Part shown: piece after piece, positions 1 through 58,800 of the stretch
Layout of the letters: each line of letters starts with the position of its first letter
How positions within the stretch are numbered: position 1 is the first letter of the stretch
Source: a virus
Direction: 5' to 3' (one strand)
DNA: 64,000 nucleotides
IMG/VR virus record: IMGVR_UViG_3300045988_165212
The notes under the pieces: generated by a model
What the model saw: the letters and a program-made list of their open reading frames with translations, nothing else
Told to the model about the DNA's origin: nothing
The model's database searches: none
Translations under genes and position numbers: made by a program

Positions 1-2312
1 GGAACAACGAGGCATGCGACAGCGTCTTTGTTGAAACCGAAGTGAAGAACTATTCCGACCATGAGCAGACCATCGAGGTAATCAGCAAACTGGCGCTGAG
101 CAGTGGCAAGACCGCTTTCCGCCAGACCGGAAAGATTACCCTGAAGGCAGGCGAGACCCAGGTGGTCCGTCATCAGGCAAAGGTCAGCGATGCCCATCTG
201 TGGAGCATCACGGATCCTTATCTCTATACCCTTTCCAGTATCATCAAACGAGAGGGCAAGACCATCGATGATGTGGCTACACCTTTCGGCATCCGCACCA
301 TCTCATGGCCGGTACTCCGACAGAAGCAGGCTGCGCTCCGTGGCGATTCAGCCCAGATGGATAAGAAAGACGGCAGATTCTATCTCAATGGCAGTCCGGT
401 TTTCATCAACGGAACCTGCGATTACGAGCACCTCTTCGGTCAGAGTCATGCCTTCTCTCACGAGCAGATTGCCTCCCGTGTCAAGATGATGCGTCAGGCA
501 GGTTTCAATGCCTTCCGTGAGGCTCATCAGCCACATAATCTCTATTATCAGCAGTTGCTGGATGAGCAGGGCATGCTGTTCTGGAGTCAGTTCTCGGCAC
601 ATGTCTGGTATGATACATCCGCCTTCCGCAAGAACTTCAAGCGTCTGCTGCGCCGTTGGATCAAGGAGCGCCGCAATTCGCCTAGCGTCATTCTCTGGGG
701 CATTCAGAACGAGAGTGTGATGCCGAAGGATTTCACCGAGGAGTGTGCTGCCATTATCCGGGAGATGGACCCTACCGCTCAGACCATGCGCGCCATCACG
801 ACCTGTAATGGAGGAGAGGGAAGCGACTGGAATGTGATTCAGAACTGGAGCGGAACCTACGGCGGAACAGCCGATAAATATGATCAGGAATTGAAGCAGC
901 CTAACCAGTTGCTGAATGGTGAATATGGTGCCTGGCGCACGCTCGGTTTCCGCAGTTCCGATGCAGAGAAACTGCATGCCGGTGATGCAAAGGCTCTGTC
1001 AAAAGCCTATACCGAAGATGCCTTTGTATCTCTTCTCGGCAAGAAGGCGATGCTGGCAGAGAGTGCCAGGGACAGCGTCTGCGGCCATTTCCAGTGGCTT
1101 TTCGTGTCGCATGAAAACCCGGGCAGAGTACAGCCGGATGAGGCTTACCGCCGTATCGACAAGGTGGGACCGTTCAATTACAAGGGACTTCTCACGCCTT
1201 GGGAACAGCCTACCGAAGGCTTCTACTGGTATCGCAATCATTATACTAAGGTGCAGCCTGATACGCTTATGCCTACAGCTGCCGACCGCAGCAGAAATCT
1301 TCTGAAACCAGCCGAGGGTTATACCTATCTGTATAGAGTGAACTGTGGCGGTGATGCCGTTACAGACAGTTATGGCAGCGAGTGGGAGCAGGACGACAGC
1401 GTCTATTCTCATTCCTGGGCAGAGCGTTTCGGCATGAATCCGTTTACGGCGAGTCAGGGACATATCACCTCCCGCATTCATGGCTTGAAATCATCATCTG
1501 CAGCCTCTCATCATGCTGCGGCTCATGATGCACAGCTCTTCCAGTATTTCCGTTGGGGCCGTCATGCGCTGAACTATCAGTTTGCCGTTCCGGATGGAGA
1601 ATATCGCGTAGAACTCTATTTTGCTGAGCCTTGGTTGGGCAAGCATGAGGGTGCCGGCATCGATTGTGAAGGCGAGCGCATCTTTGATGTAGCCATCAAC
1701 GATTCCGTGGTAGTAGATGACCTCGACCTTTGGGCTGAGGCTGGCTTTGCGGGAGCCTGCAAGAAGGTGATAGATATCAAGGTAAAGGGCGGTCTGCTGA
1801 CCATTTCTTTCCCGGAAGTAAAGGTGGGAGAGGCAATCATCTCTGCCATCGCCATTGCTGCCAAGGGAGAGATAGGAGATGCAGAAAAGTGGAATGTCGC
1901 CTTCAAGGGCAGCAAGCCTGAGAGCGGAATGAGCAAGACTTACTGGGCTGACCTGGATAAGGATGTGGTAGAGAAATATCCGAAGGAGCTGTTGCCTCAG
2001 GACAACGAAGTATTCCCGGCTGTGCGCTATAAGAGCAAGTCCTCAACCTGGACCATCAATCCTGGTGTAGCCCGCGAATACATGTTGCGTTTCCGCTATA
2101 AGAACACAACCGGTGAGCAACAGGTAGGCAGGTTGAAGATTGTGGACAGCAAGGGCATTGTCCTGCTGGATAGAGACATGACCTTCCCTGAAACGCCGAA
2201 TAAGTTCAAAACCATCGGTACCACTACTGATTCTCAGATCAATGCCGGTACCTATCAGATAATCCTCTCCGGTCTTCCGAACGTTTCGTTCGATTATCTG
2301 GAAGTGCAATAA
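1..2312 (+). CDS. Multidomain GH2-like glycosidase, C-terminal part only (5' end cut by window edge); inverted duplicate of 55813..58124
   Basis: 756-aa ORF identical to the C-terminal 756 aa of the 1329-aa ORF at 55813..59802. GH2-type TIM-barrel motifs (NAFREAHQPH, WGIQNES) and a malectin-like YRVNCGGD segment. Confidence 0.8.
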   Translation, partial: NNEACDSVFVETEVKNYSDHEQTIEVISKLALSSGKTAFRQTGKITLKAGETQVVRHQAKVSDAHLWSITDPYLYTLSSIIKREGKTIDDVATPFGIRTISWPVLRQKQAALRGDSAQMDKKDGRFYLNGSPVFINGTCDYEHLFGQSHAFSHEQIASRVKMMRQAGFNAFREAHQPHNLYYQQLLDEQGMLFWSQFSAHVWYDTSAFRKNFKRLLRRWIKERRNSPSVILWGIQNESVMPKDFTEECAAIIREMDPTAQTMRAITTCNGGEGSDWNVIQNWSGTYGGTADKYDQELKQPNQLLNGEYGAWRTLGFRSSDAEKLHAGDAKALSKAYTEDAFVSLLGKKAMLAESARDSVCGHFQWLFVSHENPGRVQPDEAYRRIDKVGPFNYKGLLTPWEQPTEGFYWYRNHYTKVQPDTLMPTAADRSRNLLKPAEGYTYLYRVNCGGDAVTDSYGSEWEQDDSVYSHSWAERFGMNPFTASQGHITSRIHGLKSSSAASHHAAAHDAQLFQYFRWGRHALNYQFAVPDGEYRVELYFAEPWLGKHEGAGIDCEGERIFDVAINDSVVVDDLDLWAEAGFAGACKKVIDIKVKGGLLTISFPEVKVGEAIISAIAIAAKGEIGDAEKWNVAFKGSKPESGMSKTYWADLDKDVVEKYPKELLPQDNEVFPAVRYKSKSSTWTINPGVAREYMLRFRYKNTTGEQQVGRLKIVDSKGIVLLDRDMTFPETPNKFKTIGTTTDSQINAGTYQIILSGLPNVSFDYLEVQ

Positions 2313-2485
2313 AAGGAAATCTGCGCCATTTGCGAAATCTGTGTGACTTAAGAATCTCACGCAGATGACGCAGATGGTGCAGATTTTTTTCTATCAGTAT
2401 GGTTAAAATCGTTCTGGTTAGTAAAATGACGTATTATAATTCATTTTAATACCATTATTATGTTTCGGTCTACCCCATACCTACT

Positions 2486-3628
2486 CTATTGCACATTTTC
2501 CCCTATAACTTTTGAATATGGAATCCCATTGACAAATAACGTAAATATCAAGTTTTTTTTATTGACATACCCTAAGTCTATAGCCATATTATACTTACCT
2601 TGTTTCTGTTTGCCTAATTTTCTATTTACCAAAAATATACCATCTTGGGTATAAACTCCATAAGAAATATTCGCATCGTCTAAAAGCGAGTAACTCAAAT
2701 TTACACCTGTATTATTAATATTTACTGAATAGTTATTTGCTTTCAATAAATTTTGGCCTCTATCTTGTTGTTGCAACTTTTGACATTTTCCTTCTTTTGT
2801 TATCTTTCTACGAATTTCCTCATTGATAGAATCATCCGACAATTCGTTTTGCATAAGAACAGAGCAATATAAAGCTGAAGAATTCAAAATACGATTTCTT
2901 CCATTACAGGAAGAGATTGTTTCTAATCTTAAAATAGGATAGCGGTATCCAGGAGCATACCATCTATAAACATCATTTCTAACCAAAGCAGTATCACTCT
3001 TCATAAGACTATCAACTTTGTTATAGGACAATTTAGGAATACTATCCAGTACACCATATTTTTGCAATTCTTTTTCCTTGCCATTAAACAATGAAGATAC
3101 TAATCTTTGATTATGAATCAACAATGTATTTGGCAGAGTATCTCTATCAATAGTTAGCAACGTACCTTTTCCTATGATTTTATACTTATATTTCCCACAA
3201 ATATGCACCAAATCACCATGCACATCGTCACCATGTGCTGAAAACCAACCTTTGCAGGAATCTTGTAAGCATAGGGGATAACGCAAGTCGATTTCGGCTT
3301 CATCATATTTAATTCTAGCTTGCTTATTTTGAAAGGCAACAAGATATAGTCCATCGCCTCGCTCATCATATAAGTATTTTGTTTTACCATCAAAACTGGC
3401 AATAAAAGCCTTTACTGTACTATCCCTATTTGAGAAAAAATGTAAATTTTGCTCATGTGAAAGTAGTTGAGCATCAGAAAAATCCCACATTTCTAGACTA
3501 TCAGAAAGGGAGAAATTTTCTGAAAGTAATAATTCCGAAAACTTTAGGTTATCCCCTATGCGAATTTCATTTTGTCCTAAAATATGTATAGGGAACAATA
3601 ACATAAGCAATAGTATCATTTTATCCAT
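2486..3628 (-). CDS. Secreted hypothetical protein with T9SS-type C-terminal sorting-domain-like tail
   Basis: 380-aa ORF with N-terminal signal peptide (MDKMILLLMLLFPIHILG). The last ~80 aa (NLSYSL..GVYTQDG..YNMAIDL..FTLFVNG) resemble Por/T9SS CTDs. AT-rich, host-like. Confidence 0.6.
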   Translation of the reverse strand: MDKMILLLMLLFPIHILGQNEIRIGDNLKFSELLLSENFSLSDSLEMWDFSDAQLLSHEQNLHFFSNRDSTVKAFIASFDGKTKYLYDERGDGLYLVAFQNKQARIKYDEAEIDLRYPLCLQDSCKGWFSAHGDDVHGDLVHICGKYKYKIIGKGTLLTIDRDTLPNTLLIHNQRLVSSLFNGKEKELQKYGVLDSIPKLSYNKVDSLMKSDTALVRNDVYRWYAPGYRYPILRLETISSCNGRNRILNSSALYCSVLMQNELSDDSINEEIRRKITKEGKCQKLQQQDRGQNLLKANNYSVNINNTGVNLSYSLLDDANISYGVYTQDGIFLVNRKLGKQKQGKYNMAIDLGYVNKKNLIFTLFVNGIPYSKVIGENVQ

Positions 3629-3651
3629 AACAACTATATGTAAAAGTAATT

Positions 3652-4014
3652 TTAATAATCCATAACCATACCTGTCTTTCGATAAAGTTGAATATAAACA
3701 GGCGATTCATAACTGTTACCATATACTTTCCAAGATTTTACATCCTTTACCACCTTTAAAGGATATTCATTCTTCTTCATGTATCCAAAATGAAGTTCAT
3801 CCAATAACATAGAAGCAACTTCTGCCACACACTTAGGTGTAGAAATTATTCCTTCATTGTAAGAATACACAGTATTATCAGACTCATACAATGAATCTGA
3901 TTTACTTTTAAACCACAATTTTTCATTTATTTTTCCTTTATAACAAAACTCAATATTATCAAAACTAAAACTATCTGCCTTAGTCGTAATACCTACTAGA
4001 TAACTACAAAACAT
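3652..4014 (-). CDS. Hypothetical protein (120 aa)
   Basis: ORF directly upstream of, and co-oriented with, 2486..3628. No recognisable motif. Confidence 0.45.
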   Translation of the reverse strand: MFCSYLVGITTKADSFSFDNIEFCYKGKINEKLWFKSKSDSLYESDNTVYSYNEGIISTPKCVAEVASMLLDELHFGYMKKNEYPLKVVKDVKSWKVYGNSYESPVYIQLYRKTGMVMDY

Positions 4015-4250
4015 CCCAATAATTAAAGGGCACAGAACGAAGCGTATATAAAGCCTTATGCCTAAATATCGGGTGAAGTATTTGAAATATAGTTAGTTAC
4101 GATAATCTTGCATGAATAGCGACACAAAACGAAACGTTTACATGGGTTTAATTTTGGTTTAATTCTGTGGCCTCCTGGCTTGCGTTTGAGGGCGGTAGGA
4201 TTGAATGAGGTTTACAAACGGCTTACATGAGGATGATGGGACTTGTGCAT

Positions 4251-4277
4251 GGGTGGCAATCGCTACCCTTTATTTTT
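4251..4277 (+). terminator. Orphan intrinsic terminator (7-bp stem gggtggc/gctaccc, loop aatc, T-run tttattttt)
   Basis: Hairpin and T-run read directly. No + strand ORF of 60 aa or more in 4015..4250. Confidence 0.5.
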
Positions 4278-4330
4278 GCCCTTTTATGATTATTTAAAAT
4301 GCAAAATTATTCCATATAATTATTATTTGG

Positions 4331-4338
4331 TATATTTG
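4331..4338 (+). promoter_or_regulatory. Bacteroidota -7 promoter box TATATTTG for the 80-aa gene
   Basis: Matches the TAnnTTTG consensus, 24 nt upstream of the ATG at 4362. Confidence 0.5.
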
Positions 4339-4361
4339 CACCGAAATTTAAATGAATAGAT

Positions 4362-4604
4362 ATGGCAAAAGTTATACACGTCCATCTTATTGTGGGCAAA
4401 CATAATGGCTTGAAAGACTTCTACTTTTCAAGCATATCGGCGGTTTACACCGTGCTGACCTCTGAGGAGGTTGGTTGTACCAAGAGTTACTTGCTTCATG
4501 CTGGTCTGTCTGGCAATGGGTCAATAATCACGAAACGAGCTATTATAAAGCAATCTACGCTCATTTCTGGCACTCGCCAAGGGTCTATGAAGGATGATGG
4601 TTAA
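4362..4604 (+). CDS. Small hypothetical protein (80 aa), just outside the phage end
   Basis: ORF with its own -7 box upstream and a hairpin terminator downstream. Confidence 0.55.
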   Translation: MAKVIHVHLIVGKHNGLKDFYFSSISAVYTVLTSEEVGCTKSYLLHAGLSGNGSIITKRAIIKQSTLISGTRQGSMKDDG

Positions 4605-4607
4605 AAT

Positions 4608-4627
4608 GCCGTTAGAACGGCTTATTT
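4608..4627 (+). terminator. Hairpin gccgt-taga-acggc followed by ttattt
   Basis: Read directly, 4 nt after the stop of 4362..4604. Confidence 0.45.
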
Positions 4628-4703
4628 ACGGTGTTCAAACCGAATGTTAACGAGGGGGCTTCACGGCTCCCTTTTTTCATGCTCAAAAGTGGTGATTTTT
4701 GGG

Positions 4704-4761
4704 TAAGGGTTACACTAAGGGTTACAGTTAAGGGTTACACTTTCGAGAATTAAGGGTTACA
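4704..4761 (+). repeat. Four direct copies of TAAGGGTTACA (4704, 4716, 4729, 4751): putative transposase-binding sites of the phage left end
   Basis: Read directly. They sit between host-like DNA and the 3' end of the repressor gene, as the L1-L3 sites do in Mu attL. Confidence 0.6.
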
Positions 4762-4915
4762 AAAGTGGGGTCGTTGGCATACAAAAAGCTGAACGAAGAA
4801 ACTAACCACTTTTTGCGGTTAATTGTGAGGAAACTACCCCTTTCGGAGCAACGATTTTTGAAGTTTACACCTTATTATATATAATATATAGGGCTTTTTG
4901 GGCGATAAAGAGGGG

Positions 4916-4951
4916 GTGACACCCCACTTGGAGTGCCAAAGGGGGTGTCAC
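4916..4951 (-). terminator. Terminator-like hairpin after the repressor gene (10-bp stem gtgacacccc/ggggtgtcac, 16-nt loop)
   Basis: Perfect 10-bp inverted repeat read directly, 8 nt downstream of the repressor stop. The T-tract is weak. Confidence 0.45.
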
Positions 4952-4958
4952 TATGGGG

Positions 4959-5669
4959 TTAAAAGAACTTGCTTATGCTACCAATGACCTCAAAGATATT
5001 CAATATCCTTGATTTCGGGTATTCTTGTTCATCGTATTCTTGCAAGTTGATTGGGATGAAACGGAACTTGTCAGGATCATCAGACTTGCGCAATATCTTG
5101 ATGGTTCGTATCGTGTCAAGCACAACAGCGTATATTTCGCCATACTGAACATCATCCAGCGTACATTGGCGAAGAGCAATGATGTCGCCATGATTGATTT
5201 TTGGCTCCATTGAATGGCCAGTGACATTGCACCATAAATCAGCTTTCTCAAAACCACGGATGACAATGTTGGTTGCAGGAACACTAACCTGAGAGTTTAG
5301 TATCTCTGTGAAGCCACCAATGAAATCTACATCATAGTATGGCTTACCAACATCTGGATCATCAGCGAGCTTTGGAGTGTTGAGTGTTAAACTTTCTTTA
5401 TTGTGCGAAATGTTTTGCTCATTTTCTTTGCAGATAGATTCAAAATGCTTATCTGAACACCTATTTCTAAACATTTCGCCCTCTCCAGTGAGAAGCCAAT
5501 CGCCTGAGATATATTCGCATTTTGAATATATCAACTCCGTATCAAAAGAACCTCTAAGCAACCAAGTATTGATTGTTTGAGGCTTAACGCCTATCTTTTC
5601 GGCAAATTTCGCCTTTATTCCACCAGAATAGTAGTCTATCAAAGCGTTTAATATCTCTATCTTATTCAT
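4959..5669 (-). CDS. Phage repressor: HTH plus LexA/CI-type S24 autopeptidase
   Basis: 236 aa. N-terminal HTH (AKFAEKIGVKPQTINTWL) and C-terminal S24 motifs (GHSMEP..GDIIAL, ..IKILRK). Divergent from the early operon. Confidence 0.85.
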   Translation of the reverse strand: MNKIEILNALIDYYSGGIKAKFAEKIGVKPQTINTWLLRGSFDTELIYSKCEYISGDWLLTGEGEMFRNRCSDKHFESICKENEQNISHNKESLTLNTPKLADDPDVGKPYYDVDFIGGFTEILNSQVSVPATNIVIRGFEKADLWCNVTGHSMEPKINHGDIIALRQCTLDDVQYGEIYAVVLDTIRTIKILRKSDDPDKFRFIPINLQEYDEQEYPKSRILNIFEVIGSISKFF

Positions 5670-5716
5670 ATTGCGTATAAATTATATTCATTACGCGAAA
5701 ATAATCGCTTTAAAAT

Positions 5717-5747
5717 TTTGCAGATATATTCAAAATGCTTATCTTTG
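5717..5747 (+). promoter_or_regulatory. Early promoter/operator: 28-nt operator-like repeat overlapping a -7 box TATCTTTG (5740..5747)
   Basis: The sequence tttgcagatatattcaaaatgcttatct recurs at 5427..5454 with one mismatch. The TAnnTTTG match lies about 105 nt upstream of the first early gene. Confidence 0.5.
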
Positions 5748-5852
5748 CACCGTGTTACTAAAGGAACACAGCGCCAAAGATACAAAAAAGGCGTGAGAAA
5801 GACGAATTTTGCATCTTAAAAAGATAAAACAAGATTTGTATAACGATTAAAA

Positions 5853-6302
5853 ATGGAAGCAATGAAAAAGTACATTGACGTAACAAGAGAAGTTCGCCAG
5901 GACATCATGGCAGCGTTCAACGTTACAGGGAAAATGGTTTATTATGCCCTGAACTTTGATGCGAAGCGTGGCGAAAGTGACAAGGCAAAGCGCATCCGTG
6001 TATATGCCAAGCAGAAAGGTGGCATTGTGATGATAGTTGCCCCAGAGGTTGAGACCATCCATGATGCAGATGGCTATATGCGCCAATACTTCCCCAATGG
6101 TGCAATGATTGAGTGCAACAAAGCCAATGGCAATGTGGATGTGTTCTACAAGGGCAAGATGATGAAGCAATACCAGGATGTGAAAATCAAGCAACTGGAA
6201 GAAATCCAAAGCATCTTTGCTGCATGGACACAGAGGGATGCCGACATCTTGACTACCCCAGAGCTTTACAAAAAGTACGCAAGACCTGTTTGTGCCGAAT
6301 AA
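5853..6302 (+). CDS. First early-operon protein (Ner/Cro position), hypothetical
   Basis: 149-aa ORF immediately upstream of the transposase and divergent from the repressor. Assignment is by position only. Confidence 0.5.
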   Translation: MEAMKKYIDVTREVRQDIMAAFNVTGKMVYYALNFDAKRGESDKAKRIRVYAKQKGGIVMIVAPEVETIHDADGYMRQYFPNGAMIECNKANGNVDVFYKGKMMKQYQDVKIKQLEEIQSIFAAWTQRDADILTTPELYKKYARPVCAE

Positions 6303-6317
6303 TCAAGGAGGTGAGAA

Positions 6318-8315
6318 ATGGAGTATTACGGTAACACACTTTGCATTTCAGCACGTGAGCTTGTTGACGGTGGCATAATGACTGCCTCGAACTACAAGCA
6401 GCTATCTGCCAGGAAGCGCATCAATGTGGTGCGTAGCGGTAAGGGGCAAGGACGTTATGCTCTGGTTGCCGTTGATAGCATTCCTACCATCTACCGCAAA
6501 ATGGTGGATGAACTTTATCCTGGTGGTGACACTGTGAGACTGGAGGGTTGGATAACGTCCAACTATGAGACCGACCAAGCAGCCGTTGCTTTCTTCAACG
6601 ACCGTGCCAAGACTGGGCTTGACCTCACACAAGAGAAAGTGAAGGAATATGTGGTGAATGCCTCTGTTCTGAACACTTGCATCAAGCTCTACAACCGTGC
6701 AAGCGCATCAAAGAAGCTGATGGGAGAAAAATACGACTGGGAAAAGATGGCAACCACCATCAAAACACTCAAAGAGAAATTTGGCCATACGCTACCTGCT
6801 TCAACCATGCGATTCAGAAAGAAAGTAGCCGAATACAAGAAGTTTGGCTATGCCTGTCTGATAAGTGGCAAGTTCGGAAACCAAAGCGCACGCAAGGTTG
6901 ATTACAAGACGGAACGCTTGATTTTGGGCTTGGCAGTACTTCCTAACAAGCCATTCAACACAAGTGTCTTGGAACTATACAATTCGTTTGTTTGTGGTGA
7001 AATAGAGGTCTATGATCCTGAAACTGGAGAACTATTCAACCCCGATGATTTCACAGACAAGAGCGGTGAACCAAAGGTTTTGAGTGAATCGACAATCACC
7101 AACTACTTGAACCGACCGAAAAACAAGGTGCTAATTGAACATGAACTTATGAGTTACACCACCTTCATGCACGAACAGATGCCGCACATGCACCGCCATG
7201 CAGGTGAGTTCTCTTTGAGCCAAATCACAATGGATGACGTGGACTTGACACGAAAGTTGAAAGACACCAAGCAGAGGGTTCACGCTTACTATGCTTATGA
7301 TGTGGTCAGCCAATGTGTGATTGGCGCATCTTACGCAAGGAAAAAGGATGAAATCCTGGTGCTTGACTGCTTTAGGGATATGTTCCGACTGATAGAACGC
7401 AATGGTTGGGGTATGCCAGCAGGTATTGAGGTTGAGAATCACTTGATGTCGCAATACAAGGACGGATTTCTGCAAGCAGGTGTCGCATTCCCATTCGTTC
7501 ATTTCTGTGCGCCTCAGAACTCGCAAGAGAAATATGCAGAGAACTTGAACGGTGCGAAGAAACGCAGCATCATCCACAAGAACCATGAAGGCATTGGCCG
7601 TTTCTATGGAAAAGGCAAGTGGCGCACGGAAAGCAAGAAAATCAGTGACGAAACCAACGAGCTTTATGAGGATAAGGAATATTTCAGCTATGATCAACTG
7701 ATAGCTGATGACCGCCAAGACAACTATGAGTGGAATCACAGCTTGCACCCGAATCAAAAGAAGTACCCTGGTATGAGCAGATGGGACGTTCTTGTTGCCA
7801 ACATCAATCCAACCCTTCAACCGCTTGACAAACTTACGCTTGCAAGATACATTGGTGAGAGAGTGGAAACAAGCATCAGAAGAAACTCCACCGTAAGAGT
7901 GGCATACGAAGATTGGTGGTTGAGCAAGACCGAAAAGCTGGAACGTCTGGAGCCAAACAACAATAAGGTGACGGCATACTACATTCCAGATGCAGACGGC
8001 AAGCCACAAGAGGTGTTCATCTTTCAAGGTGACAGATTCATTGACCAAGTGGAACGAGTGGAAACCTACAACCGTGTGATGGCAGAACAGACTGATGAAG
8101 ACTTGGAGAAATACCAAGCACAACAGAAGAAAGTTGCCTCGTTTACAAAATACGTCAAGGACAATGCCATTGGCAAGGTTGGAGTGATGAAGGTGGAAAA
8201 GAAACAGGAAGACATTGATGAATGTCTGGTGCTTCCACCGCCAAAGATAGAGGAACCCGATGAAGACCATCAAGAGGAAATGTCCATCGAGGAACGAGCT
8301 TTGGCCGACATTTAG
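6318..8315 (+). CDS. DDE transposase (MuA-like function)
   Basis: 665 aa. Candidate D,D,E triad (ITMDDVD, YAYDVVS, GIEVENH). It is followed by a MuB-like ATPase, giving Mu-type synteny. Confidence 0.75.
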   Translation: MEYYGNTLCISARELVDGGIMTASNYKQLSARKRINVVRSGKGQGRYALVAVDSIPTIYRKMVDELYPGGDTVRLEGWITSNYETDQAAVAFFNDRAKTGLDLTQEKVKEYVVNASVLNTCIKLYNRASASKKLMGEKYDWEKMATTIKTLKEKFGHTLPASTMRFRKKVAEYKKFGYACLISGKFGNQSARKVDYKTERLILGLAVLPNKPFNTSVLELYNSFVCGEIEVYDPETGELFNPDDFTDKSGEPKVLSESTITNYLNRPKNKVLIEHELMSYTTFMHEQMPHMHRHAGEFSLSQITMDDVDLTRKLKDTKQRVHAYYAYDVVSQCVIGASYARKKDEILVLDCFRDMFRLIERNGWGMPAGIEVENHLMSQYKDGFLQAGVAFPFVHFCAPQNSQEKYAENLNGAKKRSIIHKNHEGIGRFYGKGKWRTESKKISDETNELYEDKEYFSYDQLIADDRQDNYEWNHSLHPNQKKYPGMSRWDVLVANINPTLQPLDKLTLARYIGERVETSIRRNSTVRVAYEDWWLSKTEKLERLEPNNNKVTAYYIPDADGKPQEVFIFQGDRFIDQVERVETYNRVMAEQTDEDLEKYQAQQKKVASFTKYVKDNAIGKVGVMKVEKKQEDIDECLVLPPPKIEEPDEDHQEEMSIEERALADI

Positions 8316-8359
8316 ACATCATCCAAACATCATTATAATAACGATTAAAGATTACAGCT

Positions 8360-9235
8360 ATGATAATAACAGAAGCTACAAAGAAAAAGATATTGGCAGC
8401 GATAGCAGCCAACAGGTCAAACTATCCAAGTGACGCAAAGCACGCAACCGCCATTGGTATCTCTACATCCATCTACAGCATGTTGAAGAATGGCCAGACA
8501 GAGAAGGCTCTGAGTGATGCAAACTGGCTGAGCATTGCAAGAAAGTTGAATGTAGCCTTGCGTGATGAAATGGAATGGAAGGCAGCAGCAACGGAAACCT
8601 TCAAGTATATCACCAAGCAGATAGAGTTTTGCCAAGGCTCTGGACAAAGCAGCATCCTTTGTGATATACCCAACATAGGTAAAACGTTCACGGCACGCTA
8701 TTATGTGCAAGGACACAAGAACGCTGTTTATATCGACTGTTCACAGGTGAAAACCAAATTGAAGTTAGTTCGCAAAATAGCATCTGAGTTTGGCGTGGAT
8801 AGCAAAGGACATTATGCTGATGTGTATGAAGACTTGGTTTATTACCTTCGTTCCATCGAACACCCTCTTATCATCCTTGATGAAGCTGGTGATTTGCAGT
8901 ATGAGGCATTCTTGGAACTCAAAGCCCTTTGGAATGCAACGGAACGCTGTTGTGCTTGGTACATGATGGGAGCGGACGGATTGAAGGAAAAAATCAACCG
9001 TTCCATTGAGTGCAAGAAAGTTGGTTATACAGAAATGCTGAGCCGTTACGGTGGCAGGTATTCCAAGGTTACACCAGACGATGGCAAAGAACGTGATAAG
9101 TTCTTGCGACATCAAGCGGAAGTCGTTGCAAAGGTGAACGCTCCTGAGGGTGCTGACATCGCAACCATCGTAAGAAAAACAAACGGCGGTTTGCGCCGTG
9201 TCTATACTGAGATTGAGAAACTGAAACTTGCATGA
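8360..9235 (+). CDS. MuB-like AAA+ ATPase / transposition target-DNA activator
   Basis: 291 aa. N-terminal HTH-like region, Walker A (PNIGKTF) and Walker B (LIILDEAGD). Located directly after the transposase. Confidence 0.75.
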   Translation: MIITEATKKKILAAIAANRSNYPSDAKHATAIGISTSIYSMLKNGQTEKALSDANWLSIARKLNVALRDEMEWKAAATETFKYITKQIEFCQGSGQSSILCDIPNIGKTFTARYYVQGHKNAVYIDCSQVKTKLKLVRKIASEFGVDSKGHYADVYEDLVYYLRSIEHPLIILDEAGDLQYEAFLELKALWNATERCCAWYMMGADGLKEKINRSIECKKVGYTEMLSRYGGRYSKVTPDDGKERDKFLRHQAEVVAKVNAPEGADIATIVRKTNGGLRRVYTEIEKLKLA

Positions 9236-9483: not shown

Positions 9484-9485
9484 TT

Positions 9486-10109: not shown

Positions 10110-10114
10110 GGCGT

Positions 10115-10339: not shown

Positions 10340-10342
10340 CTT

Positions 10343-10751: not shown

Positions 10752-10757
10752 ACGAAT

Positions 10758-11469: not shown

Positions 11470-11498
11470 AAATACAACCCATTTTAAACGACAAGACA

Positions 11499-47367: not shown

Positions 47368-47373
47368 ATTCGT

Positions 47374-47782: not shown

Positions 47783-47785
47783 AAG

Positions 47786-48010: not shown

Positions 48011-48015
48011 ACGCC

Positions 48016-48639: not shown

Positions 48640-48641
48640 AA

Positions 48642-49765: not shown

Positions 49766-49809
49766 AGCTGTAATCTTTAATCGTTATTATAATGATGTTT
49801 GGATGATGT

Positions 49810-51807: not shown

Positions 51808-51822
51808 TTCTCACCTCCTTGA

Positions 51823-52272
51823 TTATTCGGCACAAACAGGTCTTGCGTACTTTTTGTAAAGCTCTGGGGTAGTCAAGATGTCGGCATCCCTCTGTGTCCA
51901 TGCAGCAAAGATGCTTTGGATTTCTTCCAGTTGCTTGATTTTCACATCCTGGTATTGCTTCATCATCTTGCCCTTGTAGAACACATCCACATTGCCATTG
52001 GCTTTGTTGCACTCAATCATTGCACCATTGGGGAAGTATTGGCGCATATAGCCATCTGCATCATGGATGGTCTCAACCTCTGGGGCAACTATCATCACAA
52101 TGCCACCTTTCTGCTTGGCATATACACGGATGCGCTTTGCCTTGTCACTTTCGCCACGCTTCGCATCAAAGTTCAGGGCATAATAAACCATTTTCCCTGT
52201 AACGTTGAACGCTGCCATGATGTCCTGGCGAACTTCTCTTGTTACGTCAATGTACTTTTTCATTGCTTCCAT
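51823..52272 (-). CDS. First early-operon protein (copy of 5853..6302)
   Basis: Identical protein. Confidence 0.5.
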   Translation of the reverse strand: MEAMKKYIDVTREVRQDIMAAFNVTGKMVYYALNFDAKRGESDKAKRIRVYAKQKGGIVMIVAPEVETIHDADGYMRQYFPNGAMIECNKANGNVDVFYKGKMMKQYQDVKIKQLEEIQSIFAAWTQRDADILTTPELYKKYARPVCAE

Positions 52273-52377
52273 TTTTAATCGTTATACAAATCTTGTTTTA
52301 TCTTTTTAAGATGCAAAATTCGTCTTTCTCACGCCTTTTTTGTATCTTTGGCGCTGTGTTCCTTTAGTAACACGGTG

Positions 52378-52408
52378 CAAAGATAAGCATTTTGAATATA
52401 TCTGCAAA
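52378..52408 (-). promoter_or_regulatory. Early promoter/operator (mirror of 5717..5747)
   Basis: Exact inverted copy. Confidence 0.5.
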
Positions 52409-52455
52409 ATTTTAAAGCGATTATTTTCGCGTAATGAATATAATTTATACGCAAT

Positions 52456-53166
52456 ATGAATAAGATAGAGATATTAAACGCTTTGATAGACTACTATTCT
52501 GGTGGAATAAAGGCGAAATTTGCCGAAAAGATAGGCGTTAAGCCTCAAACAATCAATACTTGGTTGCTTAGAGGTTCTTTTGATACGGAGTTGATATATT
52601 CAAAATGCGAATATATCTCAGGCGATTGGCTTCTCACTGGAGAGGGCGAAATGTTTAGAAATAGGTGTTCAGATAAGCATTTTGAATCTATCTGCAAAGA
52701 AAATGAGCAAAACATTTCGCACAATAAAGAAAGTTTAACACTCAACACTCCAAAGCTCGCTGATGATCCAGATGTTGGTAAGCCATACTATGATGTAGAT
52801 TTCATTGGTGGCTTCACAGAGATACTAAACTCTCAGGTTAGTGTTCCTGCAACCAACATTGTCATCCGTGGTTTTGAGAAAGCTGATTTATGGTGCAATG
52901 TCACTGGCCATTCAATGGAGCCAAAAATCAATCATGGCGACATCATTGCTCTTCGCCAATGTACGCTGGATGATGTTCAGTATGGCGAAATATACGCTGT
53001 TGTGCTTGACACGATACGAACCATCAAGATATTGCGCAAGTCTGATGATCCTGACAAGTTCCGTTTCATCCCAATCAACTTGCAAGAATACGATGAACAA
53101 GAATACCCGAAATCAAGGATATTGAATATCTTTGAGGTCATTGGTAGCATAAGCAAGTTCTTTTAA
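52456..53166 (+). CDS. HTH plus S24 repressor (copy of 4959..5669)
   Basis: Identical protein. Confidence 0.85.
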   Translation: MNKIEILNALIDYYSGGIKAKFAEKIGVKPQTINTWLLRGSFDTELIYSKCEYISGDWLLTGEGEMFRNRCSDKHFESICKENEQNISHNKESLTLNTPKLADDPDVGKPYYDVDFIGGFTEILNSQVSVPATNIVIRGFEKADLWCNVTGHSMEPKINHGDIIALRQCTLDDVQYGEIYAVVLDTIRTIKILRKSDDPDKFRFIPINLQEYDEQEYPKSRILNIFEVIGSISKFF

Positions 53167-53173
53167 CCCCATA

Positions 53174-53209
53174 GTGACACCCCCTTTGGCACTCCAAGTG
53201 GGGTGTCAC
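53174..53209 (+). terminator. Repressor terminator hairpin (mirror of 4916..4951)
   Basis: Exact inverted copy. Confidence 0.45.
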
Positions 53210-53363
53210 CCCCTCTTTATCGCCCAAAAAGCCCTATATATTATATATAATAAGGTGTAAACTTCAAAAATCGTTGCTCCGAAAGGGGTAGTTTCCTCAC
53301 AATTAACCGCAAAAAGTGGTTAGTTTCTTCGTTCAGCTTTTTGTATGCCAACGACCCCACTTT

Positions 53364-53421
53364 TGTAACCCTTAATTCTCGAAAGTGTAACCCTTAACTG
53401 TAACCCTTAGTGTAACCCTTA
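53364..53421 (-). repeat. Four TAAGGGTTACA end repeats (mirror of 4704..4761)
   Basis: Read on the + strand as tgtaaccctta, four times. Confidence 0.6.
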
Positions 53422-53520
53422 CCCAAAAATCACCACTTTTGAGCATGAAAAAAGGGAGCCGTGAAGCCCCCTCGTTAACATTCGGTTTGAACACCGTAAA
53501 TAAGCCGTTCTAACGGCATT

Positions 53521-53763
53521 TTAACCATCATCCTTCATAGACCCTTGGCGAGTGCCAGAAATGAGCGTAGATTGCTTTATAATAGCTCGTTTCGTGATTA
53601 TTGACCCATTGCCAGACAGACCAGCATGAAGCAAGTAACTCTTGGTACAACCAACCTCCTCAGAGGTCAGCACGGTGTAAACCGCCGATATGCTTGAAAA
53701 GTAGAAGTCTTTCAAGCCATTATGTTTGCCCACAATAAGATGGACGTGTATAACTTTTGCCAT
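53521..53763 (-). CDS. Small hypothetical protein, 80 aa (copy of 4362..4604)
   Basis: Identical protein. Confidence 0.55.
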   Translation of the reverse strand: MAKVIHVHLIVGKHNGLKDFYFSSISAVYTVLTSEEVGCTKSYLLHAGLSGNGSIITKRAIIKQSTLISGTRQGSMKDDG

Positions 53764-53847
53764 ATCTATTCATTTAAATTTCGGTGCAAATATACCAAAT
53801 AATAATTATATGGAATAATTTTGCATTTTAAATAATCATAAAAGGGC

Positions 53848-53874
53848 AAAAATAAAGGGTAGCGATTGCCACCC
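53848..53874 (-). terminator. Orphan intrinsic terminator (mirror of 4251..4277)
   Basis: Exact inverted copy. Confidence 0.5.
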
Positions 53875-54110
53875 ATGCACAAGTCCCATCATCCTCATGT
53901 AAGCCGTTTGTAAACCTCATTCAATCCTACCGCCCTCAAACGCAAGCCAGGAGGCCACAGAATTAAACCAAAATTAAACCCATGTAAACGTTTCGTTTTG
54001 TGTCGCTATTCATGCAAGATTATCGTAACTAACTATATTTCAAATACTTCACCCGATATTTAGGCATAAGGCTTTATATACGCTTCGTTCTGTGCCCTTT
54101 AATTATTGGG

Positions 54111-54473
54111 ATGTTTTGTAGTTATCTAGTAGGTATTACGACTAAGGCAGATAGTTTTAGTTTTGATAATATTGAGTTTTGTTATAAAGGAAAAATAAAT
54201 GAAAAATTGTGGTTTAAAAGTAAATCAGATTCATTGTATGAGTCTGATAATACTGTGTATTCTTACAATGAAGGAATAATTTCTACACCTAAGTGTGTGG
54301 CAGAAGTTGCTTCTATGTTATTGGATGAACTTCATTTTGGATACATGAAGAAGAATGAATATCCTTTAAAGGTGGTAAAGGATGTAAAATCTTGGAAAGT
54401 ATATGGTAACAGTTATGAATCGCCTGTTTATATTCAACTTTATCGAAAGACAGGTATGGTTATGGATTATTAA
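54111..54473 (+). CDS. Hypothetical protein, 120 aa (copy of 3652..4014)
   Basis: Identical protein. Confidence 0.45.
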   Translation: MFCSYLVGITTKADSFSFDNIEFCYKGKINEKLWFKSKSDSLYESDNTVYSYNEGIISTPKCVAEVASMLLDELHFGYMKKNEYPLKVVKDVKSWKVYGNSYESPVYIQLYRKTGMVMDY

Positions 54474-54496
54474 AATTACTTTTACATATAGTTGTT

Positions 54497-55639
54497 ATGG
54501 ATAAAATGATACTATTGCTTATGTTATTGTTCCCTATACATATTTTAGGACAAAATGAAATTCGCATAGGGGATAACCTAAAGTTTTCGGAATTATTACT
54601 TTCAGAAAATTTCTCCCTTTCTGATAGTCTAGAAATGTGGGATTTTTCTGATGCTCAACTACTTTCACATGAGCAAAATTTACATTTTTTCTCAAATAGG
54701 GATAGTACAGTAAAGGCTTTTATTGCCAGTTTTGATGGTAAAACAAAATACTTATATGATGAGCGAGGCGATGGACTATATCTTGTTGCCTTTCAAAATA
54801 AGCAAGCTAGAATTAAATATGATGAAGCCGAAATCGACTTGCGTTATCCCCTATGCTTACAAGATTCCTGCAAAGGTTGGTTTTCAGCACATGGTGACGA
54901 TGTGCATGGTGATTTGGTGCATATTTGTGGGAAATATAAGTATAAAATCATAGGAAAAGGTACGTTGCTAACTATTGATAGAGATACTCTGCCAAATACA
55001 TTGTTGATTCATAATCAAAGATTAGTATCTTCATTGTTTAATGGCAAGGAAAAAGAATTGCAAAAATATGGTGTACTGGATAGTATTCCTAAATTGTCCT
55101 ATAACAAAGTTGATAGTCTTATGAAGAGTGATACTGCTTTGGTTAGAAATGATGTTTATAGATGGTATGCTCCTGGATACCGCTATCCTATTTTAAGATT
55201 AGAAACAATCTCTTCCTGTAATGGAAGAAATCGTATTTTGAATTCTTCAGCTTTATATTGCTCTGTTCTTATGCAAAACGAATTGTCGGATGATTCTATC
55301 AATGAGGAAATTCGTAGAAAGATAACAAAAGAAGGAAAATGTCAAAAGTTGCAACAACAAGATAGAGGCCAAAATTTATTGAAAGCAAATAACTATTCAG
55401 TAAATATTAATAATACAGGTGTAAATTTGAGTTACTCGCTTTTAGACGATGCGAATATTTCTTATGGAGTTTATACCCAAGATGGTATATTTTTGGTAAA
55501 TAGAAAATTAGGCAAACAGAAACAAGGTAAGTATAATATGGCTATAGACTTAGGGTATGTCAATAAAAAAAACTTGATATTTACGTTATTTGTCAATGGG
55601 ATTCCATATTCAAAAGTTATAGGGGAAAATGTGCAATAG
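54497..55639 (+). CDS. Secreted protein with T9SS-CTD-like tail (copy of 2486..3628)
   Basis: Identical protein. Confidence 0.6.
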   Translation: MDKMILLLMLLFPIHILGQNEIRIGDNLKFSELLLSENFSLSDSLEMWDFSDAQLLSHEQNLHFFSNRDSTVKAFIASFDGKTKYLYDERGDGLYLVAFQNKQARIKYDEAEIDLRYPLCLQDSCKGWFSAHGDDVHGDLVHICGKYKYKIIGKGTLLTIDRDTLPNTLLIHNQRLVSSLFNGKEKELQKYGVLDSIPKLSYNKVDSLMKSDTALVRNDVYRWYAPGYRYPILRLETISSCNGRNRILNSSALYCSVLMQNELSDDSINEEIRRKITKEGKCQKLQQQDRGQNLLKANNYSVNINNTGVNLSYSLLDDANISYGVYTQDGIFLVNRKLGKQKQGKYNMAIDLGYVNKKNLIFTLFVNGIPYSKVIGENVQ

Positions 55640-55812
55640 AGTAGGTATGGGGTAGACCGAAACATAATAATGGTATTAAAATGAATTATAATACGTCATT
55701 TTACTAACCAGAACGATTTTAACCATACTGATAGAAAAAAATCTGCACCATCTGCGTCATCTGCGTGAGATTCTTAAGTCACACAGATTTCGCAAATGGC
55801 GCAGATTTCCTT

Positions 55813-58800
55813 TTATTGCACTTCCAGATAATCGAACGAAACGTTCGGAAGACCGGAGAGGATTATCTGATAGGTACCGGCATTGATCTGAGAATCAGTA
55901 GTGGTACCGATGGTTTTGAACTTATTCGGCGTTTCAGGGAAGGTCATGTCTCTATCCAGCAGGACAATGCCCTTGCTGTCCACAATCTTCAACCTGCCTA
56001 CCTGTTGCTCACCGGTTGTGTTCTTATAGCGGAAACGCAACATGTATTCGCGGGCTACACCAGGATTGATGGTCCAGGTTGAGGACTTGCTCTTATAGCG
56101 CACAGCCGGGAATACTTCGTTGTCCTGAGGCAACAGCTCCTTCGGATATTTCTCTACCACATCCTTATCCAGGTCAGCCCAGTAAGTCTTGCTCATTCCG
56201 CTCTCAGGCTTGCTGCCCTTGAAGGCGACATTCCACTTTTCTGCATCTCCTATCTCTCCCTTGGCAGCAATGGCGATGGCAGAGATGATTGCCTCTCCCA
56301 CCTTTACTTCCGGGAAAGAAATGGTCAGCAGACCGCCCTTTACCTTGATATCTATCACCTTCTTGCAGGCTCCCGCAAAGCCAGCCTCAGCCCAAAGGTC
56401 GAGGTCATCTACTACCACGGAATCGTTGATGGCTACATCAAAGATGCGCTCGCCTTCACAATCGATGCCGGCACCCTCATGCTTGCCCAACCAAGGCTCA
56501 GCAAAATAGAGTTCTACGCGATATTCTCCATCCGGAACGGCAAACTGATAGTTCAGCGCATGACGGCCCCAACGGAAATACTGGAAGAGCTGTGCATCAT
56601 GAGCCGCAGCATGATGAGAGGCTGCAGATGATGATTTCAAGCCATGAATGCGGGAGGTGATATGTCCCTGACTCGCCGTAAACGGATTCATGCCGAAACG
56701 CTCTGCCCAGGAATGAGAATAGACGCTGTCGTCCTGCTCCCACTCGCTGCCATAACTGTCTGTAACGGCATCACCGCCACAGTTCACTCTATACAGATAG
56801 GTATAACCCTCGGCTGGTTTCAGAAGATTTCTGCTGCGGTCGGCAGCTGTAGGCATAAGCGTATCAGGCTGCACCTTAGTATAATGATTGCGATACCAGT
56901 AGAAGCCTTCGGTAGGCTGTTCCCAAGGCGTGAGAAGTCCCTTGTAATTGAACGGTCCCACCTTGTCGATACGGCGGTAAGCCTCATCCGGCTGTACTCT
57001 GCCCGGGTTTTCATGCGACACGAAAAGCCACTGGAAATGGCCGCAGACGCTGTCCCTGGCACTCTCTGCCAGCATCGCCTTCTTGCCGAGAAGAGATACA
57101 AAGGCATCTTCGGTATAGGCTTTTGACAGAGCCTTTGCATCACCGGCATGCAGTTTCTCTGCATCGGAACTGCGGAAACCGAGCGTGCGCCAGGCACCAT
57201 ATTCACCATTCAGCAACTGGTTAGGCTGCTTCAATTCCTGATCATATTTATCGGCTGTTCCGCCGTAGGTTCCGCTCCAGTTCTGAATCACATTCCAGTC
57301 GCTTCCCTCTCCTCCATTACAGGTCGTGATGGCGCGCATGGTCTGAGCGGTAGGGTCCATCTCCCGGATAATGGCAGCACACTCCTCGGTGAAATCCTTC
57401 GGCATCACACTCTCGTTCTGAATGCCCCAGAGAATGACGCTAGGCGAATTGCGGCGCTCCTTGATCCAACGGCGCAGCAGACGCTTGAAGTTCTTGCGGA
57501 AGGCGGATGTATCATACCAGACATGTGCCGAGAACTGACTCCAGAACAGCATGCCCTGCTCATCCAGCAACTGCTGATAATAGAGATTATGTGGCTGATG
57601 AGCCTCACGGAAGGCATTGAAACCTGCCTGACGCATCATCTTGACACGGGAGGCAATCTGCTCGTGAGAGAAGGCATGACTCTGACCGAAGAGGTGCTCG
57701 TAATCGCAGGTTCCGTTGATGAAAACCGGACTGCCATTGAGATAGAATCTGCCGTCTTTCTTATCCATCTGGGCTGAATCGCCACGGAGCGCAGCCTGCT
57801 TCTGTCGGAGTACCGGCCATGAGATGGTGCGGATGCCGAAAGGTGTAGCCACATCATCGATGGTCTTGCCCTCTCGTTTGATGATACTGGAAAGGGTATA
57901 GAGATAAGGATCCGTGATGCTCCACAGATGGGCATCGCTGACCTTTGCCTGATGACGGACCACCTGGGTCTCGCCTGCCTTCAGGGTAATCTTTCCGGTC
58001 TGGCGGAAAGCGGTCTTGCCACTGCTCAGCGCCAGTTTGCTGATTACCTCGATGGTCTGCTCATGGTCGGAATAGTTCTTCACTTCGGTTTCAACAAAGA
58101 CGCTGTCGCATGCCTCGTTGTTCCAGACGTGTACTCCGAAAGGCTCCACCCTCACCTCATCGGTTTCGATGAGCGATACCGGACGGAAGATGCCGAAAGG
58201 CTGACTGCCCTCCGAGAATCCCCATTCTGATGAACAGCCGCCGCAAGGCCAAGGATTATTGGTCTGCATGGCAGGATGTTCTACCTTGACATTCAATACA
58301 TTATCGCCCTCACGAAGTACATCCGAGATATCGAGCGTAAAGCTGGTTCTGCCTACCAGTTCCTTCGGATAACTCTTGCGGTTCACCTTGACCGTAGCAA
58401 AGGTTCCCACACCTTCCAACTGCAGGAAGTAGCGTTTTCCGGTCTGTTTATGAACGGAGAAATGCTTCTCGTAGGTGGCGGTACCATGCAGGTTGCCGTG
58501 CTTCAGCTGGCGGTAACCGTAATAATCGTCCAGATTACTAGGCACATTCACCCGGAAGGTTCCCATCTTCTTCGTGATGCTGTCTTCCGAAGTCTTGCCG
58601 AAGGTTACCTGCCAATCCTGATTCAGACTCACAATCTGTCGTTTTCCCTTCTTTTCGGGTGTCGGGAAAGAAACCTGCGAACGTCCCATCGGCACACTCG
58701 TAGCCACGGCGATGCCTCGCTGTCCGGCATGGTTCACGGCACAATAGAAATGGTATACCACGCCCTGATGCTTCAGCACATAACTCTTATGGGCGAACAT

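Follow-up and report, generated by a model that had tools for sequence, protein, structure and literature searches.

Introduction

The hankyphage is a Mu-like DGR prophage of Bacteroides/Phocaeicola (PMC6199706, PMC12135933), with a genome of 43 kb and a template repeat (TR) of 117 nt, and it has been described with its RT and two adjacent repeats. It is transposable, inserts at random with a short target duplication, encodes a CI-like S24 repressor, and has a DGR that varies the C-terminal end of a tail fibre at AAY (Asn) codons. In the DGR of Bordetella phage BPP-1 (mtd-avd-TR-brt), an RT and an invariant TR generate adenine-specific differences in a VR at the 3' end of the receptor-binding gene. 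Mu and P1 carry invertible G/C segments (Gin/Cin), in which inverted repeats bracket tail-fibre DNA. Contigs that are palindromic have been reported as an assembly error (PMC9455707). In the "hairpin" contigs that graph assemblers make at inverted repeats, identical arms enclose a unique core within an inverted repeat pair and one true flank is lost.

The DNA analyzed here (the window, the whole stretch of 64,000 nt) presents a 58-kb palindrome that we judge, with a probability of about 0.88, to be an assembly error and thus a property of the contig and of no DNA molecule. What underlies it is a 38.7-kb Mu-like transposable prophage of ordinary type, which resides in the gut bacterium Segatella copri and carries a DGR. 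It shares with the hankyphage its mode of life in gut Bacteroidota, its random insertion with a short target duplication, its S24 repressor and the AAY-directed diversification of the fibre C-terminus. It differs in host, in genome length (38.7 kb vs 43 kb), in TR length (114 nt vs 117 nt), in a portal protein at most 70% identical to any record, and in having the TR-RT module inverted and 26.5 kb away from the VR. No DNA match for the window phage was found in the phage collection. Within a group of distant relatives, which is not identified with the hankyphage, fibre (VR), TR and RT lie adjacent on one strand.

The prophage and its host

The Mu-like assignment follows from matches to phrog_310, phrog_296, Portal_Mu (2e-75), Phage_Mu_F and Mu-like_Pro, and the S24 repressor and the tape measure were confirmed as well. 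The genes and boundaries that place the prophage in its chromosome are as follows.

48890..49765, - strand: MuB-like ATPase (phrog_296, 5.5e-40; AAA_22)
49810..51807, - strand: Mu-type transposase, 665 aa (phrog_310, 1.8e-57), mirrored at 6318..8315 on the + strand
54075..54101, + strand: phage left end, with its tip at 54101 (mirror 4024), where contigs with different insertion sites diverge
54102..64000: S. copri host left flank, with a truncated 134-aa gene, a 380-aa ORF, GH2/malectin, hipBA and small ORFs

Insertion sites are many, as host flanks differ at both ends between contigs, and insertion is accompanied by a 4-5 bp duplication, (A)TAAT. Beyond the phage left tip, S. copri DNA extends for 4,023 nt on the left side of the window and for 9,899 nt on the right. 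With its last 48 nt the window crosses into an IS that encodes a DDE_5 transposase; it ends 10 nt past a 63-aa ORF, and other assemblies stop 8 nt past that ORF.

Geometry of the palindrome

Direct sequence comparison shows that 1..15788 and 42337..58124 are reverse complements of each other without a single mismatch, which divides the window into three parts.

1..15788: left arm, the mirror image of the right arm and a spurious second use of the same DNA, running off the window start
15789..42336: core of phage late genes, 26,548 nt, unique, with Pfam and PHROG matches
42337..58124: right arm, the native copy, with TR, RT, accessory gene, early genes, MuB, MuA, repressor, phage left end and host left flank

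The core encodes the fibre, a 1408-aa tail protein, tape measure, capsid and protease on the - strand, and terminase, gp36, Mu portal and Mu F on the + strand. The preliminary description had reported both the perfect palindrome and its exact limits at 15788/42337, and these hold: position 15789 is c and 42336 is a, and in the palindromic register mismatches start at 15789, beyond which identity falls to the random level of ~25%. Also borne out is its placement of the inner breakpoints at the 5' edge of the TR/VR homology, to within 1 nt when compared with ~26 genuine VRs from other contigs; the first base of that homology is T or C depending on the fibre allele. The breakpoints therefore lie on an inverted repeat pair of the true genome, at the TR 5' edge (42337) and the VR position (15788). 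From this inner edge, as had also been stated, 26 nt of shared sequence (TAAGCCGTGTGGTTTATCGTGGGTAC) precede the AAY tract, which begins AACAAC GCG AAT. Its account of arm gene content stands for the GH2/malectin host gene, the phage early genes and the RT, and is not confirmed for a "T9SS-CTD gene": the 380-aa and 120-aa host ORFs have no Pfam or NCBIfam match.

Three known structures had been dismissed in the same description, in each case rightly. Phage terminal inverted repeats are rejected because the arms contain host chromosome beyond the phage left tip, and not phage DNA alone at the termini. An invertible tail-fibre segment of the Mu/P1 kind would likewise place inverted repeats around tail-fibre DNA in a Mu-like phage, but here the arms span at least 15.8 kb including at least 4 kb of host DNA, no role for an invertase is indicated, and the repeat is the DGR TR/VR pair and not a gix site. 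The exclusion of an inversion product of Mu replicative transposition holds as well.

The arms are probably longer than the window displays. A 69,876-bp JGI contig carries the exact GH2 and 380-aa host proteins of the window, and the exact GH2 protein occurs in three places on two contigs. The length of the JGI contig equals 64,000 + 5,876, as would be obtained if the palindrome were complete to both ends with arms of 21,664 nt. From this coincidence of lengths, we infer that it is the fully palindromic source of the window.

Organization of the DGR

The DGR is recognized by an RT gene beside a TR and by a TR/VR pair that differs at TR adenines. Its native components lie at the inner end of the right arm.

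42304..42311, + strand: TAACTTTG, putative Bacteroidetes-type -7 box, read from the sequence
42337..42450, + strand: TR, 114 nt including 29 adenines, at its native site between Mu F and RT
42654..43955, + strand: DGR reverse transcriptase, 433 aa (RVT_1, 1.1e-12; phrog_1423, 1.6e-108), mirrored at 14170..15471 on the - strand
43955..44437, + strand: DUF4376 protein, 160 aa (PF14301, 1.8e-07), directly after the RT, mirrored at 13688..14170 on the - strand

The Bacteroidetes -7 promoter consensus is TAnnTTTG. The TAACTTTG box, correctly located by the preliminary description 26 nt upstream of the TR and breakpoint, is a putative promoter from which transcription of the TR likely begins. The RT gene starts 204 nt downstream of the TR. 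Among the ENA and IMG/VR contigs examined, the TR was identical in 21, carried a single C32T SNP in 9, was adenine-eroded in 2 and had a 6-nt deletion in 1. VRs depart from the TR almost exclusively at TR adenines, with 5-14 differences per VR in eight IMG/VR contigs, and TR and VR agree fully over their first 26-27 nt.

In the collection, 3,228 blocks list the exact RT protein. As in BPP-1, RT, invariant TR and adenine-specific differences occur together and the VR closes the receptor-binding gene; unlike in BPP-1, TR and VR are far apart on opposite strands and the module has no Avd homologue, with DUF4376 following the RT instead. No match to an Avd-type accessory protein was found among the DGR neighbour proteins, and the conserved neighbour is the DUF4376 protein, which adjoins the RT in every case, distant relatives included, making it a candidate DGR accessory protein. 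With the TR-RT module beside Mu F and inverted relative to the VR at the fibre 3' end 26.5 kb away, the two repeats form an imperfect inverted repeat that brackets the late genes.

The hybrid junction and the same strain assembled without it

At the inner end of the left arm, the window joins sequences that are separate in the native order.

15622..22446, - strand: chimeric fibre ORF, 2274 aa; the native gene encodes 2279 aa and its last 22 residues are different
15675..15788, - strand: second unmutated TR copy, fused to the fibre body in place of the true VR, with the chimeric junction at 15788/15789

The repeat that follows the fibre body retains all 29 adenines. Where the homology stops on its 3' side, TR-flanking DNA (ACAAACTG...) comes next and not the VR tail CCTTCCGCGG, and the window then reads outward through RT, early genes, left end and host DNA. 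No record of the exact 2274-aa product was found anywhere, and the junction from fibre through TR to TR flank was not found in IMG/VR, JGI metagenomes or GTDB genomes. Native 2279-aa fibre genes are present in three contigs (L021-L023). The native order MuF-TR-RT, continuing as early genes-MuB-MuA-repressor, occurs in 20/20 contigs among the matches listed in a look-up of the exact MuF and RT proteins, and in 14 IMG/VR contigs besides. The order fibre-VR-right end occurs in ~26 contigs, and both native junctions share one contig in eight IMG/VR cases.

An independent contig (ENA ERZ27229799 k119_275841, 67,910 bp) contains the same host genes, insertion site and phage. It is 100% identical to 15789..64000, core and collinear right arm included. 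Over 48,326 nt it shows only 11 mismatches, all at 15692-15761 and all on TR adenines; these are the 11/11 differences of its VR, which itself lies outside the window. In place of the left arm, this contig continues from the fibre into a genuine A-mutated VR, the VR tail, the phage right end (...GCGGATTATA) and the host right flank, and the 4-5 bp target duplication (A)TAAT flanks its prophage. None of these (VR, VR tail, right end, target duplication, host right flank) is in the window, where the right-end motif has zero occurrences. The loss of the DNA 3' of the fibre, including the phage right end, had been anticipated by the preliminary description, and the sister contig now supplies it. 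In at least 12 prophage-free S. copri contigs, the host right flank (Imm-NTF2-2 etc.) adjoins the left flank (380 aa, GH2).

This bears directly on a second reading offered in that description, a real chromosomal duplication in which template switching or recombination at TR/VR doubled the host left flank and the early phage half. The sequence as given does have that structure, with breakpoints on an inverted repeat, and in yeast, replication template exchange at nearby inverted repeats makes palindromic chromosomes, which counts in its favour. Such an event would, however, have taken the place of the phage right end and of the entire host right flank, and in all empty-site genomes that flank runs directly into the left one. 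An unduplicated form of the same strain exists, with an ordinary prophage and its target-site duplication, the hybrid junction is absent from the other collections searched, no outer junction is visible within the window, and the contig is predicted to be symmetric to both ends. We consider a real duplication highly improbable.

Origin of the palindrome

The evidence agrees in nearly every detail with the other reading of the preliminary description, a fold-back that leaves the fibre VR for the inverted TR and retraces the same arm: the arms are base-identical, the breakpoints lie on inverted repeats, and the true continuation exists elsewhere and is missing here. Almost certainly, the assembler turned round at the TR/VR repeat, so that it used one flank a second time and dropped the true right end of the phage. 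Graph traversal would be the step that made the error. After its shared 5' stretch the VR differs at adenines and is prone to within-sample heterogeneity; in lysogen cultures of the related hankyphage, DGR activity gives mixed VRs (PMC12135933). We infer that the assembler left the fibre body via the shared stretch and followed the TR, which is invariant and well covered, rather than the VR. The path would then return outward through RT, early genes, phage left end and host left flank, to halt at the same IS edge as the other contig end. Assemblies do break inside the VR, where 11/80 IMG/VR contigs end, as do two others (L024 and L025).

The window thus resembles other graph-assembler palindromes in its identical arms, its unique core within an inverted repeat pair, its one lost flank and the prediction that both contig ends stop at the same place. 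It differs in that the repeat is not a generic IS or rRNA but a DGR TR/VR pair, exact over 26-27 nt and with one hypervariable copy. In the sister contig, TR and VR are exactly identical over only 27 nt, less than the final k used by most assemblers, so the error requires something more: a small-k stage, VR variants whose TR-like prefixes are longer, or chimeric reads.

As to how the fold-back arose, the preliminary description had allowed both a graph error and an MDA-type event. A path error at the inverted repeat fits better, because the turn falls exactly on a repeat pair 26.5 kb apart and not at an arbitrary point. Fold-back in vitro on physical molecules, faithfully assembled (an MDA chimera, a TR-VR template switch in library PCR, or a long-read fold-back), is improbable by our estimate. 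PCR and MDA template switching would favour homology such as the 114-nt, ~85-95% identical TR/VR, and even a small share of chimeric fragments could create graph edges when depth is high. Typical MDA and nanopore fold-backs, though, turn at arbitrary points with little or no unique loop, whereas the loop here is 26.5 kb and repeat-bounded; a consensus contig also requires many concordant chimeric molecules, and nothing points to amplification of the sample.

Possible exchange between TR and VR

A further possibility is that the fibre-TR junction is real and that the 26.5-kb core is inverted in part of the lysogens by homologous recombination of the TR with the oppositely oriented VR. With both orientations sampled, the assembler would have joined the arm to both core ends, so that the palindrome would still correspond to no molecule. 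In an independent contig (IMG/VR 3300045988_151757), the Mu F spacer is followed by an A-mutated VR with its tail, the right end and host DNA, and the fibre body leads into 77 nt of pure TR; these two junctions match the reciprocal products of an inversion. The TR slots of two further contigs have lost 11 and 7 adenines to the exact bases of their own VRs, interleaved too finely for a k-mer path mosaic, which suggests VR-to-TR sequence transfer in both.

We nonetheless regard such inversion as unlikely. Reciprocal junctions occur in only 1 of ~15 IMG/VR contigs, which could itself be mis-oriented, and none was found in JGI metagenomes; k119_275841, of the same strain, crosses both native junctions without a break. 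A crossover would have a perfect match of only 26-27 nt to work with, and the resulting fibre would carry an Asn-rich tip without variation and a C-terminal tail foreign to it.

Exchange between TR and VR at the DNA level may be real in this phage group all the same, because of the reciprocal-junction contig and the two TRs with substitutions of their own VRs. It is a tentative proposal, and one we would not expect to prevail, that the TR and VR of this lineage exchange DNA, a crossover flipping the core and a non-crossover transfer eroding TR adenines, with the palindrome still a product of assembly. If this were true, the fibre body would become fused to the unmutated template while the mutated VR moved behind Mu F, and the fibre-TR junction in the window would come from a subpopulation with the core inverted.

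A perfect palindrome that turns at the DGR repeats

When the window was aligned with itself, 1..15788 and the reverse complement of 42337..58124 matched with 0 mismatches, so that the giant perfect palindrome claimed in the preliminary description is borne out across 15,788-nt arms, and a chance origin of a perfect 15.8-kb repeat is excluded. From 15789 towards the centre, identity is at the 25% of random sequence, and the core (15789..42336; 26,548 nt) is unique. Reading both breakpoints returned the same bases as had been given before. The source names of both host and phage proteins point to Segatella copri as the host, and the window carries the following features:

1..15788 (left) and 42337..58124 (right), inverted copies: arms with GH2/malectin, a 380-aa ORF, a 120-aa ORF, an S24 CI-like repressor, early genes, a Mu-type transposase (665 aa; phrog_310, 1.8e-57), a MuB-like ATPase (phrog_296, AAA_22) and a reverse transcriptase (RT, 433 aa)
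43955-44437, mirrored at 13688-14170: DUF4376 protein (phrog_19239)
15789..42336, minus strand: core genes for a 2274-aa fibre ORF, a 1408-aa tail protein, tape measure, capsid and protease
15789..42336, plus strand: core genes for terminase, gp36, Mu portal (2e-75) and Mu F
42208-42227 and 42296-42315: 20-nt inverted repeat, 80% complementary, in the spacer between Mu F and the template repeat (TR)
59982..61585: hipB/hipA toxin-antitoxin pair
59767-59916 and 61697-61840: two direct copies of a ~150-nt element, ~91% identical, flanking hipB/hipA

The inner edges of the two arms share a 114-nt sequence with 29 adenines, TAAGCCGTGTGGTTTATCGTGGGTAC AAC AAC GCG AAT GCG AAT ... GTCGGCTCACGCCTGG. 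Its right-hand copy sits in the spacer between Mu F and the RT, 26 nt past a TAACTTTG box, which is the distance from a -7 box reported earlier, while its left-hand copy makes up the C-terminal end of the fibre ORF. The fibre of the window ends in TR sequence and then continues beyond the 3' limit of homology into TR-flanking DNA. The right arm of the spacer inverted repeat overlaps the TAACTTTG -7 box, and the repeat may be a terminator or regulatory hairpin for transcription of the TR RNA.

Native order of the repeats in other contigs

Human gut assemblies contain the phage very often: an exact-protein look-up gives 3,228 collection blocks with the RT. Among the matches listed, 20 of 20 have the order Mu F, spacer, TR, RT, DUF4376, early genes, MuB, MuA, repressor and an 80-aa gene, beyond which the host flank is different each time; since all 20 keep the order Mu F-TR-RT, the right junction of the window is native. 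In contigs found by the 1408-aa protein the fibre has 2279 aa and is followed by different host DNA within ~300 nt. There, the same 40-nt stretch of the fibre body leads into a sequence matching the TR except at TR adenines, then into a different tail, CCTTCCGCGG...TAA, and a conserved end, ...CATTTCGTTTTGCGGATTATA, past which the contigs diverge. All but one of ~26 independent fibre ends of the lineage carry 5-17 adenine substitutions and this tail of the variable repeat (VR), so the fibre of the window ends in template, not in a variable repeat. The exception is IMG/VR 3300045988_151757, where the fibre body runs on pure TR. The native spacer-TR junction occurs in 14 IMG/VR contigs, 8 of which also have the native fibre-VR junction. 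The repeats vary in length as well: one VR (loci L033/L035) is short of ~15 nt, and the TR of locus L146 (IMGVR 3300045988_179394) has lost one 6-nt GCGAAT unit.

The same strain in linear form

The exact GH2 protein is also found on a 67,910-bp contig, ENA ERZ27229799 k119_275841, whose sequence we rebuilt from three loci. The gap-free alignment of window 15675..64000 to it spans 48,326 nt and has 11 mismatches, all of them at 15692-15761, where T on the plus strand of the window is A in the sense of the TR. Judged by their sequences, contig and window hold the same phage at the same insertion site of the same host, and are identical outside the repeat. The prophage of k119_275841 measures 38,710 bp from its left tip TAAAGGGCACAGAACGAAGCG, which lies at 4024 and 54101 in the window, to its right tip; a 4-5 bp duplication, (A)TAAT, borders it on both sides. 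Downstream of the VR and its tail, the right-end sequence ...GCGGATTATA leads into an Imm-NTF2-2 gene. This motif has zero occurrences in the 64,000-nt window and is present in k119_275841, in line with the fold-back reading of the preliminary description, under which the true DNA past the fibre gene, including the phage right end, would be missing.

At least 12 S. copri contigs that lack the prophage show the empty site: in them the host right flank of k119_275841, with the Imm-NTF2-2 gene and the genes around it, lies immediately next to the host left flank. We reached these contigs through the 380-aa and HipA proteins, after an exact 36-nt pattern of the empty site had given no match in GTDB genomes. 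The insertion splits a 134-aa host gene beside an RHS-toxin / Imm-NTF2-2 immunity locus, and the 120-aa ORF at the phage left tip (3652-4014, mirrored at 54111-54473) is its truncated remnant.

The exact GH2 and 380-aa proteins also lie together on one JGI/IMG contig of 69,876 bp, and the palindrome continued to the mirror of position 64000 would measure 64,000 + 5,876 = 69,876 bp. GH2 turned up at three positions across two contigs, which is what a contig with two copies of it would produce. The last 48 nt of the window (63953-64000) fall inside an insertion sequence (IS; locus L029, 4281-5850) with a 479-aa DDE_5 transposase, absent from IS-free relatives, comparison with which set its edge. 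The IS splits a 178-aa host gene and leaves a 63-aa ORF at 63799..63990; two other assemblies stop 8 nt past this ORF, and the window ends 10 nt past it. Our inference is that the window makes up the final 64,000 nt of a contig composed of arm (21,664), core (26,548) and arm.

Origin of the palindrome

We consider the palindrome an assembly artefact, not a real feature, with a probability of about 0.88. In this lineage TR and VR form an inverted pair 26.5 kb apart, with 26-27 exact shared bases at the 5' end and ~85-95% identity overall, and it is the inverted and distant TR that makes a fold-back possible. Contigs are highly prone to break at the VR: 11 of 80 IMG/VR contigs, and the ENA contigs L024 and L025, end inside its 114 nt. 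The DGR of the related hankyphage is active in lysogen cultures (PMC12135933). The assembly path would have exited the fibre body into the invariant TR in place of the VR, and would then have run outward along the sole available arm. The fold-back chimera, one of two readings in the preliminary description, is most likely a path error at TR/VR; its other form, a turn of the MDA type, or one made in nanopore sequencing, is less likely, as the turn falls exactly on the repeat pair with a 26.5-kb loop. A true palindromic duplication is, in our estimate, highly improbable. Phage terminal repeats are rejected given the host DNA inside the arms, a Gin-type invertible segment given its size and content, and the inversion product of Mu replicative transposition because it would double the whole phage rather than one flank and half the phage. 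Nor can retrohoming have made the junction, since the junction copy is unmutated and does not stop at the end of the TR but goes on for 15 kb, as far as host DNA.

A subpopulation with a real inversion between TR and VR could have supplied the fibre-TR junction, which we regard as unlikely. An inversion of this kind would account for IMGVR_UViG_3300045988_151757 (L034, L036, L125; 48,911 bp), whose phage is 94-96% identical and which has both reciprocal junctions, one from the Mu F spacer into an A-mutated VR, its tail, the right end and host DNA, the other from the fibre body into pure TR, 77 nt of which are present before the contig stops. With its core in swapped orientation, this contig has either undergone inversion between TR and VR or been assembled with the core the wrong way round. 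However, the chimeric junction of fibre, TR and TR flank was not found elsewhere: an exact look-up has no record of the 2274-aa fibre, a pattern of fibre body, 108-120 nt and TR flank gave 0 matches in IMG/VR, GTDB genomes and JGI metagenomes, and a looser pattern of fibre body and 73 nt of pure TR matched only 151757 in IMG/VR and nothing in JGI metagenomes.

Exchange between the repeats is also suggested by two of the 8 IMG/VR contigs with both native junctions, 3300045988_135853 (L134/L051) and 3300045988_100013 (L138/L050), whose TR slots have lost 11 and 7 of 29 adenines, each replaced base being the base in that contig's own VR. Their VRs differ further from their TR solely at remaining adenines (6). 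A mosaic of k-mer paths fits poorly because the interleaving is too fine, position 57 being VR-only and position 58 shared. These eroded TRs are possibly real VR-to-TR transfer (template erosion), the alternative being consensus cross-talk.

Relation to known elements

The element works like hankyphage of Bacteroides, a Mu-like prophage that makes a 5-bp duplication and whose DGR acts on its fibre (PMC6199706), but is not the same phage by sequence. By megablast, the fibre 3' region and the terminase-to-RT block had no match in the phage collection and no named genome was tied to the window by DNA; by tblastn, the portal is at most 70% identical, to unannotated faecal fragments. Distant relatives in IMG/VR (L094, L101, L108, L071, L098, L085, L090, L064), with ~75% aa identity in the fibre C-terminus and 72-82% in the RT, keep the canonical arrangement, in which fibre(VR), TR, RT and DUF4376 share a strand close to the right end, with ~650 nt between fibre(VR) and RT and 2.3 kb more phage DNA after DUF4376 before the contigs diverge. 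The lineage of the window, by contrast, has both its TR-RT-DUF4376 module and its terminase-portal-Mu F block inverted with respect to the head and tail genes. In the distant relatives as well as in this lineage, the gene after the RT is always that of the DUF4376 protein; no Avd homologue was found, and the DUF4376 protein may be an accessory factor of this DGR type.

Implications

The palindrome is of little biological interest and is useful as a warning; we found little literature on palindromic contigs. A DGR with inverted, far-apart TR and VR can lead an assembler to a contig whose inverted terminal repeats are very long, and tools that treat such repeats as a sign of viral-genome completeness could be misled. 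The fold-back removes the true VR as well as the phage right end and its junction with the host; DGR finders would find an RT and two 'TRs' with no target, prophage boundaries would be wrong, and all arm genes would be tallied twice. Because the element is so common, the same error may recur in catalogues. If TR x VR inversion is real, DGR repeats would drive large inversions and template erosion in the prophage, which would be a modest but new point on the cost of carrying a DGR.
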